In this document: positions 34,589-35,428 of the stretch, piece after piece
Layout: each line of letters begins with the position of its first letter
Position numbering within the stretch: the first letter of the stretch is position 1
Program-made: the position numbers and the translations under genes
Assembly: GCA_964484785.1 (NCBI GenBank)
Contig: CAZAFD010000001.1
Span: forward strand, 6,671-65,444
Direction of reading: 5' to 3'
Length of the DNA: 58,774 nt
Source of the DNA: an uncultured Rhizobiaceae bacterium
Lineage (GTDB): Bacteria; Pseudomonadota; Alphaproteobacteria; Rickettsiales; UBA1997
Notes under the pieces: model-generated
The model's input: only the letters and a program-made list of their open reading frames with translations
What the model was told of the DNA's origin: nothing
Databases searched by the model: none

Positions 34589-35428
34589 CTAAAAATCAAA
34601 TATAACTGCTCTTAAATATGCACCAACATCTGTAACCTTGGCGCCAGATTGTTTACTATTTTCGAAGTCGCCACATGACGATCCATAAAGAGATCCATTT
34701 ATTTTTCCACGGCAAGCACAATAAAACATATACTTATTTACTTTTTCAGGGTTATATTGTGTACTTGGTTGTGTGGTGTCCTCCTTATAAAAACTTCTTA
34801 GTTTTTTTACTAACTTATCGCAAAATTGCGGAGATAAAAAACCATCGGTGTTGGTACCTTTGCCTTCCGCTGTATATGCATAATTTAAAAATGTTTTTGC
34901 TTTTTTATTGGTATCATAACCATAATTCCAAGTTGTTGGTTGAGCACAGCTATTGTTATTCCATAACAAAAACCCAGCACCATTTATACCTTTTATTTTA
35001 GATTTTAAACTTGACCAACCACTTAAAATATATTTTGATTTATCCAGATATCCCATATCTACCAAGTCTATGAATAACTGCCCATTGCACATAAAGTCAG
35101 GTGGCCAAGCTGGATTAACAGCGAAAAAAGAACGACCAGCCAAATAATACTGATGTAAAGCATTCTTATATTCTTCAAATTCATTTCTAATAATTATAAA
35201 TTTGGCTTCATCTATAAGTGCTCTTCCTCCTATTACTGCACTAATAAGAAGACCTATTATGATAAGAACTATAGATAACTCAACTAAAGAAAAGGCTGAT
35301 TTAAATTGATTAAGATAACATGAATACAAAGAATAAAATGAGAGATGTTTATTATTATTACTTAAATTTCTTGTCTCTCTCTCTCTCTCTCTTATTAGAT
35401 TATTTAAATTATTATGATGTTGGAGCAT
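34589..35428 (-). CDS. type IV pilin / T2SS pseudopilin-like protein, paralog 1
   Basis: It has a class III signal, KSA|FSLVELSIVLIIIGLLISAV (Phe+1, Glu+5, hydrophobic helix), then ALIDEAK...YKNALHQYYL like the pilin alpha1-C region, and a C-terminal Cys pair (CACRGKINGSLYGSSC). The ATG start gives a 45-aa leader. An in-frame TTG at 35329-35327 would give a 12-aa leader (MYSCYLNQFKSA). Confidence 0.8.
   Translation of the reverse strand: MLQHHNNLNNLIRERERETRNLSNNNKHLSFYSLYSCYLNQFKSAFSLVELSIVLIIIGLLISAVIGGRALIDEAKFIIIRNEFEEYKNALHQYYLAGRSFFAVNPAWPPDFMCNGQLFIDLVDMGYLDKSKYILSGWSSLKSKIKGINGAGFLLWNNNSCAQPTTWNYGYDTNKKAKTFLNYAYTAEGKGTNTDGFLSPQFCDKLVKKLRSFYKEDTTQPSTQYNPEKVNKYMFYCACRGKINGSLYGSSCGDFENSKQSGAKVTDVGAYLRAVIFDF

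Follow-up and report, generated by a model that had tools for sequence, protein, structure and literature searches.

A candidate slipped-strand frame switch in the leader of type IV pilin-like paralogs of an uncultured Rickettsiales bacterium

Results

Two type IV pilin-like genes share an identical 5' block

We analyzed a stretch of 58,774 nucleotides (nt) with 32% G+C from contig CAZAFD010000001.1 (assembly GCA_964484785.1), referred to here as the window, which carries two genes for type IV pilin-like proteins 23 kb apart. Both genes contain a perfect AG repeat within the region encoding their long leader peptide, and we propose, with a probability of about 0.64, that this repeat is a slipped-strand contingency switch of the reading frame located in a translated leader. 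Gene 1 is convergent with glyS (32972-34342) and also lies near metG, and gene 2 is convergent with miaA (56108-57058) and lies near a transfer RNA (tRNA) gene. The coordinates of the features discussed are given in Table 1.

The identical block shared by the two genes comprises 33 nt 5' of the ATG, the entire leader and mature codons 1-21. Outside the block the identity drops to 35-60% on both flanks, and the rest of the two proteins is about 50% identical overall. Since both AG tracts lie within the block, they represent one evolutionary event and not two independent ones. An identical block in otherwise diverged genes is what gene conversion or concerted evolution would be expected to leave. 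Paralogs of a related metagenome-assembled genome (MAG), E20__bin249, also have an identical 5' block and a diverged remainder, which suggests that gene conversion is still homogenising the leader and the N-terminal helix.

Table 1. Coordinates in the window of the pilin-like genes and of the features of their 5' regions (aa, amino acids).
Feature	Position	Strand	Description
Type IV pilin-like gene 1	34589..35428	-	279-aa prepilin, 45-aa leader and 234-aa mature protein; identical to database protein P0001
Type IV pilin-like gene 2	57649..58410	-	253-aa prepilin; identical to database protein P0003
Leader-coding region, gene 1	35294..35428	-	45 codons, from ATG at 35428 to Ala(-1) at 35296-35294
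Leader-coding region, gene 2	58276..58410	-	45 codons, same as gene 1
Identical block, copy 1	35231..35461	-	231 nt, 100% identical to 58213-58443
Identical block, copy 2	58213..58443	-	231 nt, 100% identical to 35231-35461
(AG)9.5 tract, copy 1	35374..35392	-	Leader codons 13-19, encodes R-E-R-E-R-E
(AG)9.5 tract, copy 2	58356..58374	-	Same as copy 1
In-frame TTG, codon 34	35327..35329 (twin 58309-58311)	-	Sole in-frame alternative start after the tract; would give the 12-aa leader MYSCYLNQFKSA
TTGACA hexamer	35488..35493 (twin 58471-58476)	-	Conserved in both copies, 60 nt 5' of the ATG

The encoded proteins resemble type IV pilins

In both genes the leader runs into ...NQFKSA/FSLVELSIVLIIIGLLISAVI.G. 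With Phe at +1 and Glu at +5, this is a signal sequence of class III (prepilin); the slash marks the predicted cleavage site, which falls between 35294 and 35293 in gene 1. A prepilin leader is expected to end in Gly, rarely Ala, at -1 with Phe or Met at +1, and both genes have such an end (...NQFKS-A/F-SLVE). The Gly(-1) has been termed 'invariable' in bacteria (PMC4471445) and is replaced here by Ala; both G and A occur at this position in relatives. The cleavage site is followed by a hydrophobic stretch of about 21 residues with E at +5 (FSLVELSIVLIIIGLLISAVIGG), nearly every position of which is invariant across nine paralogs. Both proteins passed the NCBIfam model TIGR02532 (19.3 bits for gene 1 and 19.5 bits for gene 2, cutoff 16.3) and stayed below the gathering score of Pfam PF07963 (17.8 and 18.0 bits vs 21.2). 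The leader departs from those of type IV pilins in its length, which is 45 aa from the ATG (12 aa if translation starts at the TTG), compared with a reviewed range of 6-26 aa and with 15-30 aa in type IVb pilins (PMC4471445).

In an AlphaFold2 model of moderate quality (mean predicted local distance difference test score, pLDDT, of 70) the leader is disordered and is followed by a 49-residue helix (residues 48-96) and a beta-rich head. A Foldseek search of the PDB with this moderate-quality model returned nothing at E <= 0.001, and TcpA ranked second with a non-significant E of 1.1. No pilus machinery, prepilin peptidase included, was recognised among the open reading frames (ORFs) of the window, and neither gene has a pilus operon beside it. 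Type IV pilus genes have been reported in basal and DDG-clade Rickettsiales (PMC10847448, PMC9352585).

A perfect AG repeat lies between the ATG and the cleavage site

The plus strand reads TCTCTCTCTCTCTCTCTCT at both 35374-35392 and 58356-58374, which is a perfect (AG)9.5 tract of 19 nt on the gene (minus) strand. Direct reading of the two sites thus agreed with a preliminary description of this DNA, which had reported a 19-nt perfect repeat at each of them. The same description had noticed no other dinucleotide tract of this length in the window, and this held when the whole window was scanned with regular expressions for repeat units of 1-7 nt: the two AG copies were the only dinucleotide tracts longer than 11 nt, the runner-up being (TA)5.5 at 43602. 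A model of independent and identically distributed bases with the observed composition predicts 4e-7 AG/CT tracts of 19 nt or more in 58.8 kb. The tract therefore has what is looked for in a simple sequence repeat (SSR) contingency locus, namely a perfect repeat beyond chance and, with 19 nt and 9.5 units, within the slippage-prone range.

Each tract lies 36 nt downstream of the sole in-frame ATG (35428 / 58410) and 78 nt upstream of the cleavage site A/FSLVE. The ATG frame runs open through the tract as R-E-R-E-R-E into an Asn-rich leader and on to the cleavage site. The position of the repeat between this ATG and the cleavage site, the leader peptide quoted with it and an in-frame TTG at 35329 / 58311 had all been described beforehand, and we found them as claimed. 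In the codon usage found here Glu is written as GAG in 27% and Arg as AGA in 58% of cases, and the probability that RERERE would be written as a perfect AG repeat is about 0.004 (0.4%), suggesting that the repeat is maintained as a property of the DNA and not of the peptide.

We edited the tract in silico. With one unit removed or two units added, the ATG frame ended in ...RERDKKFK and a stop, giving products of 22 or 24 aa, and with one unit added or two removed it ended in ...RERQEI and a stop, giving 22 or 20 aa. A gain or loss of three units left the protein at full length, with one RE pair more or fewer. Given an ATG start, the repeat thus belongs to the coding sequence and precedes the functional part of the protein, and a change in length that is not a multiple of three abolishes the product in silico.

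Paralogs in the source assembly have long, ATG-started leaders

Nine pilin-like paralogs, assigned to one NCBI assembly by the lengths of contigs that they have in common, are present in the protein database (P0001-P0009), two of which are identical to the products of the window genes. All nine have an ATG-started leader of 33-50 aa in spite of divergence and indels. The two ends of the leader are conserved (M.Q..NLNNLI... and ...NQFKSA), and the middle is variable and contains the indels. At the protein level the RE run differs among the paralogs, appearing as RERERE, RERERERE-E, REGEE, REREEK and EKEGEE.

Metagenome contigs contained no exact match to a 23-mer from the conserved block that codes for the N terminus. 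A protein-profile scan of the metagenome contigs found distant relatives only (at most 72% identity over about 30-110 residues), and their leaders had no GC-containing SSR. A profile of the C-terminal domain, aimed at N-terminally truncated (OFF) paralogs, had poor recall, recovering only 3 of the 9 known members.

Related MAGs carry G/C tracts at the same place in the leader

We scanned the GTDB species, each represented by one genome, with a profile and obtained 79 loci, nearly all of them from uncultured Rickettsiales MAGs with many pilin-like genes each. In these 635 kb of loci we located all prepilin motifs that precede a mature ORF of 150 aa or more and inspected the region upstream of each. 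Two MAGs with AT-rich DNA, E20__bin249 and BRZ_MD__bin29, contained 26 distinct pilin-like paralogs with an uninterrupted run of at least 7 G or C. The run was G10/G11 or C9/C10 in 22 of them and G7 in the other four. Loci with G10/G11 or C9/C10 tracts are L002, L007, L013, L015-L017, L022, L024, L033, L035, L041, L043, L045, L046, L052, L057, L065, L067 and L075. The runs sit 47-115 nt 5' of the cleavage site and just 3' of a conserved start, for example ATG ACA AAA TTC TCT AAA ATT C-G(n). Runs of at least 8 G or C were concentrated there: 24 of the 28 found in the 635 kb fall within the 150-nt zones 5' of pilin cleavage sites, which make up 4.3% of the sequence. The existence and the placement of these tracts are not in doubt.

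As assembled, six of the 26 tracts leave the pilin in frame with the conserved ATG and 20 put it out of frame, an approximate ratio, since a MAG assembly gives a consensus length for each homopolymer, which may be one base off. In 25 of the 26 genes there is no in-frame ATG, GTG or TTG between the tract and the cleavage site, so translation must begin upstream and the tract must be coding. At L045, for instance, the ATG frame reads M-T-K-F-S-K-I-R-G-G-G-stop and the pilin frame is intact beyond it; a mechanical ORF list opens this gene at an internal TTG. Tract lengths vary between near-identical paralogs. In six E20 paralogs the 60 nt that follow the tract are identical, and the only difference in that stretch is the tract itself, which is G10, G11, G11 and G10 in four of them and an interrupted 12-nt version, in frame, in the other two (G6CGGTGG and TGGTGGTGGTGG). 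Such interrupted in-frame versions, found in L043 and L059, are as expected of 'locked-ON' alleles.

In a BRZ_MD subfamily the tract is C9/C10 and encodes PPP. BRZ_AG__bin83 has a tract-free ortholog of this subfamily (L003) in which the same 48-aa leader is in frame, indicating that the long leader is a conserved, translated feature; in-frame leaders in the relatives measure 27-48 aa, and the 45-aa leader of the window genes fits this family. The convergent arrangement of glyS and pilin gene seen in the window is shared with L045 (E20; G10, out of frame), L012 and L050, and that of miaA and pilin gene with L021. By this synteny the loci are old positional orthologs, and different repeat types arose at the same leader position in different lineages. 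No GC-containing dinucleotide repeat was found in the leader of any relative, which makes the AG version specific to the lineage of the window.

G/C tracts were not found in E06, E02, the Nepal MAG and BRZ_AG, in which leaders are 5-48 aa long and some contain a long in-frame (AAT)n encoding poly-Asn. Very long poly-Asn leaders, such as MNNNNNNNNNNNNNNNSNINNNNNNNNNSNNKA, are present at L020, L056, L069 and L070, the repeat at L069 being a perfect (AAT)5, and the leader of the window genes holds (AAT)4 at 35349-35360 / 58331-58342. Repeats of this kind could vary the length of a leader without changing its frame.

In four MAGs a XerC/D-like tyrosine recombinase, 47-52% identical to that encoded at 43019-44002 of the window, is found upstream of short-leader pilin genes (...NKKG/FSLIE). 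It lies directly upstream, about 100-150 nt 5' of the pilin motif, in L011, L058 and L063 and about 1 kb away in L040. The recombinase gene of the window adjoins no pilin gene, and the XerC/D-like recombinase is probably a housekeeping Xer.

The tract is better explained by a frame switch than by a neutral repeat

We considered whether the tract, although translated, is mere low-complexity (Arg-Glu)n in a tolerant leader that is cleaved off, that is, a by-product of neutral slippage which is effectively stable and switches nothing. The leaders are of low complexity and Asn-rich, the in-frame (AAT)n runs of relatives cannot switch a frame, all nine paralogs are in frame, and the two window copies are of equal length, all of which would be natural for a neutral repeat. 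Such a repeat would not account for the perfection of the tract at the DNA level against the codon usage (P of about 0.004), nor for the concentration of hypermutable G/C tracts, mostly out of frame, at the same position in relatives. Moreover, its 9.5 units lie inside the range of 5-11 units of proven CT switches of Helicobacter pylori (PMC10564699). We consider the neutral explanation unlikely, and the frame switch remains our preferred reading.

Several observations nonetheless weigh against a frame switch. All nine detectable paralogs are ON, compared with about two thirds OFF expected for free-running switches, and a long tract is apparent in at most three of them, as judged from the protein sequences. 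The AG tract does not vary in length between the two window copies, which are both ON and, being parts of the 231-nt block, are not independent. The 6:20 ratio of frames in the relatives is subject to the base-calling limit given above. The in-frame TTG 3' of the tract could rescue translation or let it leak in OFF states, a 45-aa leader exceeds the reviewed ranges of 6-26 and 15-30 aa (PMC4471445), and sequence scans returned no promoter, transcription start site or ribosome-binding site that backs either start.

Translation from the ATG is favoured over the TTG start

The tract would not be translated at all if the TTG at 35329 / 58311 were the start. It would then lie in the 5' untranslated region or promoter, where it would be inert or would modulate transcription or the stability of the mRNA instead of the reading frame, and the open frame across it would be fortuitous. 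The preliminary description had allowed for this, with the 45-aa leader as an annotation artefact. The resulting 12-aa leader would indeed be typical of type IV pilins (PMC4471445). However, the 45-codon leader frame, in a region of 24% G+C, survives without a stop in only 1.3% of mononucleotide and 1.9% of dinucleotide shuffles, and it recurs in all nine paralogs together with a conserved ATG-proximal peptide; over the leader, the other two frames are interrupted by 4 and 9 stops. At the position aligned with the TTG codon, Leu is absent from five of the nine paralog leaders, and 25 of the 26 tract-bearing relatives lack any start codon after the tract. A weak promoter-like match at 35437-35408 would set the transcription start just 5' of the tract, as a TTG start would allow, but it is one of 8 matches in a consensus scan for which 11.9 are expected in shuffles, none of them convincingly placed, and the earlier statement that the repeat lies downstream of a putative promoter was not confirmed. 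Neither start has a Shine-Dalgarno sequence, which leaves room for the TTG; the Shine-Dalgarno core is missing in 31 of 40 window genes, so its absence at the ATG or the TTG is uninformative.

Taken together, the improbable open frame, the nine paralog leaders, the codon usage and the tract-bearing genes of relatives favour the ATG and a long translated leader, with the start codon itself inferred from these sequences, and make a start at the TTG improbable.

The TTGACA hexamer upstream of the ATG is a possible -35 element, for which the -10 candidate is poorly spaced. Antisense ORFs on the plus strand over the tract (35320-35499 and 58302-58526), considered as possible real genes, were provisionally set aside, because their conservation is owed to the identical DNA block.

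It is highly improbable that the tract or its duplication is an artefact of assembly or sequencing: a 231-nt identical block is prone to collapse or mis-joining by short-read assemblers, but the two copies have distinct, syntenically sensible flanks (glyS/metG and miaA/tRNA) on one contig, their diverged gene bodies are in frame with the shared block, the same two products occur in an independent protein database, and we know of no sequencing-platform artefact of AG repeats.

Other features of the window

A 23S ribosomal RNA (rRNA) gene (29851-32610) and a 5S rRNA gene (32715-32828) have no 16S gene upstream, where a leucyl aminopeptidase gene ends at 29478; this split rRNA arrangement at 29851-32828 is typical of Rickettsiales. 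Genes for a VirB10/TrbI-like protein (20097-21665), a VirB11-type ATPase (21678-22670) and a VirD4/TraG coupling protein (22740-24512) are clustered, and the virB10-virB11-virD4 cluster looks like a part of the rvh type IV secretion system of Rickettsiales. The shared housekeeping genes have their best matches, at 52-69% amino-acid identity, in MAGs labelled 'uncultured Rickettsiales'. Together, the 23S-5S pair without 16S, the vir cluster and the housekeeping matches place the organism in Rickettsiales.

A perfect 20-bp hairpin at 34532-34576, between the convergent glyS and pilin-like gene 1, is likely a bidirectional terminator. On the minus strand, 3779-7399 holds four consecutive, partly overlapping ORFs (243, 250, 211 and 507 aa) with no match in Pfam or NCBIfam, several of them with N-terminal hydrophobic segments, which may form an envelope or secretion-related operon. 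Large ORFs without a significant family match are also found at 14549-16810 (753 aa), 17284-18720 (478 aa) and 38487-40583 (698 aa). Degenerate direct repeats of about 98 nt with 60-72% identity, at 21-397, probably belong to the repetitive end of a gene that the left boundary of the window truncates.

Discussion

The proposal that the repeat is a frame-shifting switch if the ATG is the start, made in the preliminary description, is supported by the truncation in silico, by the evidence favouring the ATG and by the mixed-frame tracts in relatives. In the mechanism we envisage, translation would start at the ATG (35428 / 58410), read the tract as RERERE and proceed through the Asn-rich leader to A/FSLVE. 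Slippage during replication that adds or removes one or two AG units would shift the frame and bring a stop after 20-24 residues, leaving no pilin, and a change of three units would restore the frame with a leader longer or shorter by one RE pair (two residues). With a tract of its own in each paralog, cells in a population would display different subsets of pilins. We infer slippage at this AG tract, independent switching of the copies and any benefit from it. Transcriptional slippage could leak some expression from out-of-frame poly-G copies in relatives and, to our knowledge, is not expected on a dinucleotide repeat.

Speculatively, switching might vary how cells attach to eukaryotic hosts or prey, or help them to evade pilus-specific phages or grazers. 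We name attachment because type IV pili have been proposed to serve host attachment in Rickettsiales (PMC10847448, PMC9352585), where they are regarded as a possible ancestral attachment device.

In the literature searched we found no report linking SSR phase variation to Rickettsiales or to type IV pilin leaders. The mechanism is classical; the same literature yielded no precedent for it in Rickettsiales or within a class III leader, for a switched family of this size or for convergent recruitment of AG, G and C repeats. At least nine pilin-like genes are present in the source assembly, and at least 18-22 distinct ones per MAG among the loci fetched. The chances seem to us about even that several environmental, probably protist-associated lineages of Rickettsiales have large sets of pilin-like genes with exceptionally long leaders (27-48 aa), each gene being switched individually and at random by a hypermutable repeat in its leader; the repeat at this position would be (AG)n here and poly-G or poly-C in two MAGs, some versions being interrupted and 'locked-ON'. 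If this is true, Rickettsiales have a contingency-locus system, which we found described neither for this order nor for class III signal peptides, and a large pilin family allows early-branching or ectosymbiotic members of the order to diversify their pili stochastically. Variable pili would then be central to meeting hosts, prey or phages, and variable pilins would bear on the evolution of host range and attachment in Rickettsiales. Leaders of 27-48 aa also widen the known range of prepilin leaders. Because gene callers truncate or lose out-of-frame copies, as in the case of L045, counts of pilin genes in such MAGs are probably too low.

Phase variation driven by simple repeats is well established in a few host-adapted pathogens, among them Neisseria, Haemophilus, Helicobacter and Campylobacter. 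The opa genes of Neisseria have CTCTT pentamer repeats in the region coding for the leader peptide, and pilC has a poly-G run in the signal-peptide region, which ties switching by leader repeats to type IV pili. Like the genes described here, opa and pilC are dispersed, multi-copy families of complete surface-protein genes, each copy with a coding leader repeat of its own that would let it switch independently. They differ in the repeat unit and in their products, Opa proteins being beta-barrel adhesins and PilC a pilus-associated adhesin, not a pilin. The major pilin of Neisseria varies by gene conversion from pilS to pilE and is not known to vary by a leader repeat. A silent-cassette system of this type was rejected for the window, since all copies are complete: the ATG, the leader and the N-terminal helix are present in the two window genes and in each of the nine paralog proteins. 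In such a system there should be a single expression locus, and silent pilS copies should lack the promoter, the start and the conserved 5' end; here the 5' end is the identical part that is shared.

The poly-G loci of Campylobacter jejuni, with G runs of about 9-11 nt in surface-structure genes of an AT-rich genome, resemble the tracts of the related MAGs. Within the Alphaproteobacteria, SSR contingency loci exist in Bartonella (PMC11466379). The contingency genes of Campylobacter and Bartonella are of other kinds, including glycosylation genes and autotransporters.

Among type IV pilins, the type IVb proteins TcpA, CofA and BfpA also combine a long hydrophilic leader with a large mature protein (210-240 aa). 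Their leaders have 15-30 aa, compared with 45 aa here and 27-48 aa in relatives. Unlike type IVb pilins, the proteins described here have Phe at +1, as do type IVa pilins and pseudopilins, and their helix scores best with GspG/type IVa-like models.

The closest parallel in mechanism is found in H. pylori, in which CT repeats of 5-11 units in the signal-peptide region turn genes ON and OFF by frameshift (PMC10564699). The outer-membrane protein genes oipA/hopH, sabA, hopZ and babB have the same repeat (CT being AG on the other strand), and the 9.5 units of the window genes fall within its 5-11. As in the window genes, the repeat of the H. pylori genes lies between the start codon and the cleavage motif of the signal peptide, and a frameshift with an early stop is predicted (PMC10564699). 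The proteins and the phylum are unrelated, and the H. pylori signal peptides are of the Sec type (class I), whereas those described here are class III prepilin leaders. In H. pylori switching has been shown experimentally and across hundreds of strains, whereas for the pilin-like genes of the window it is proposed from the sequence.

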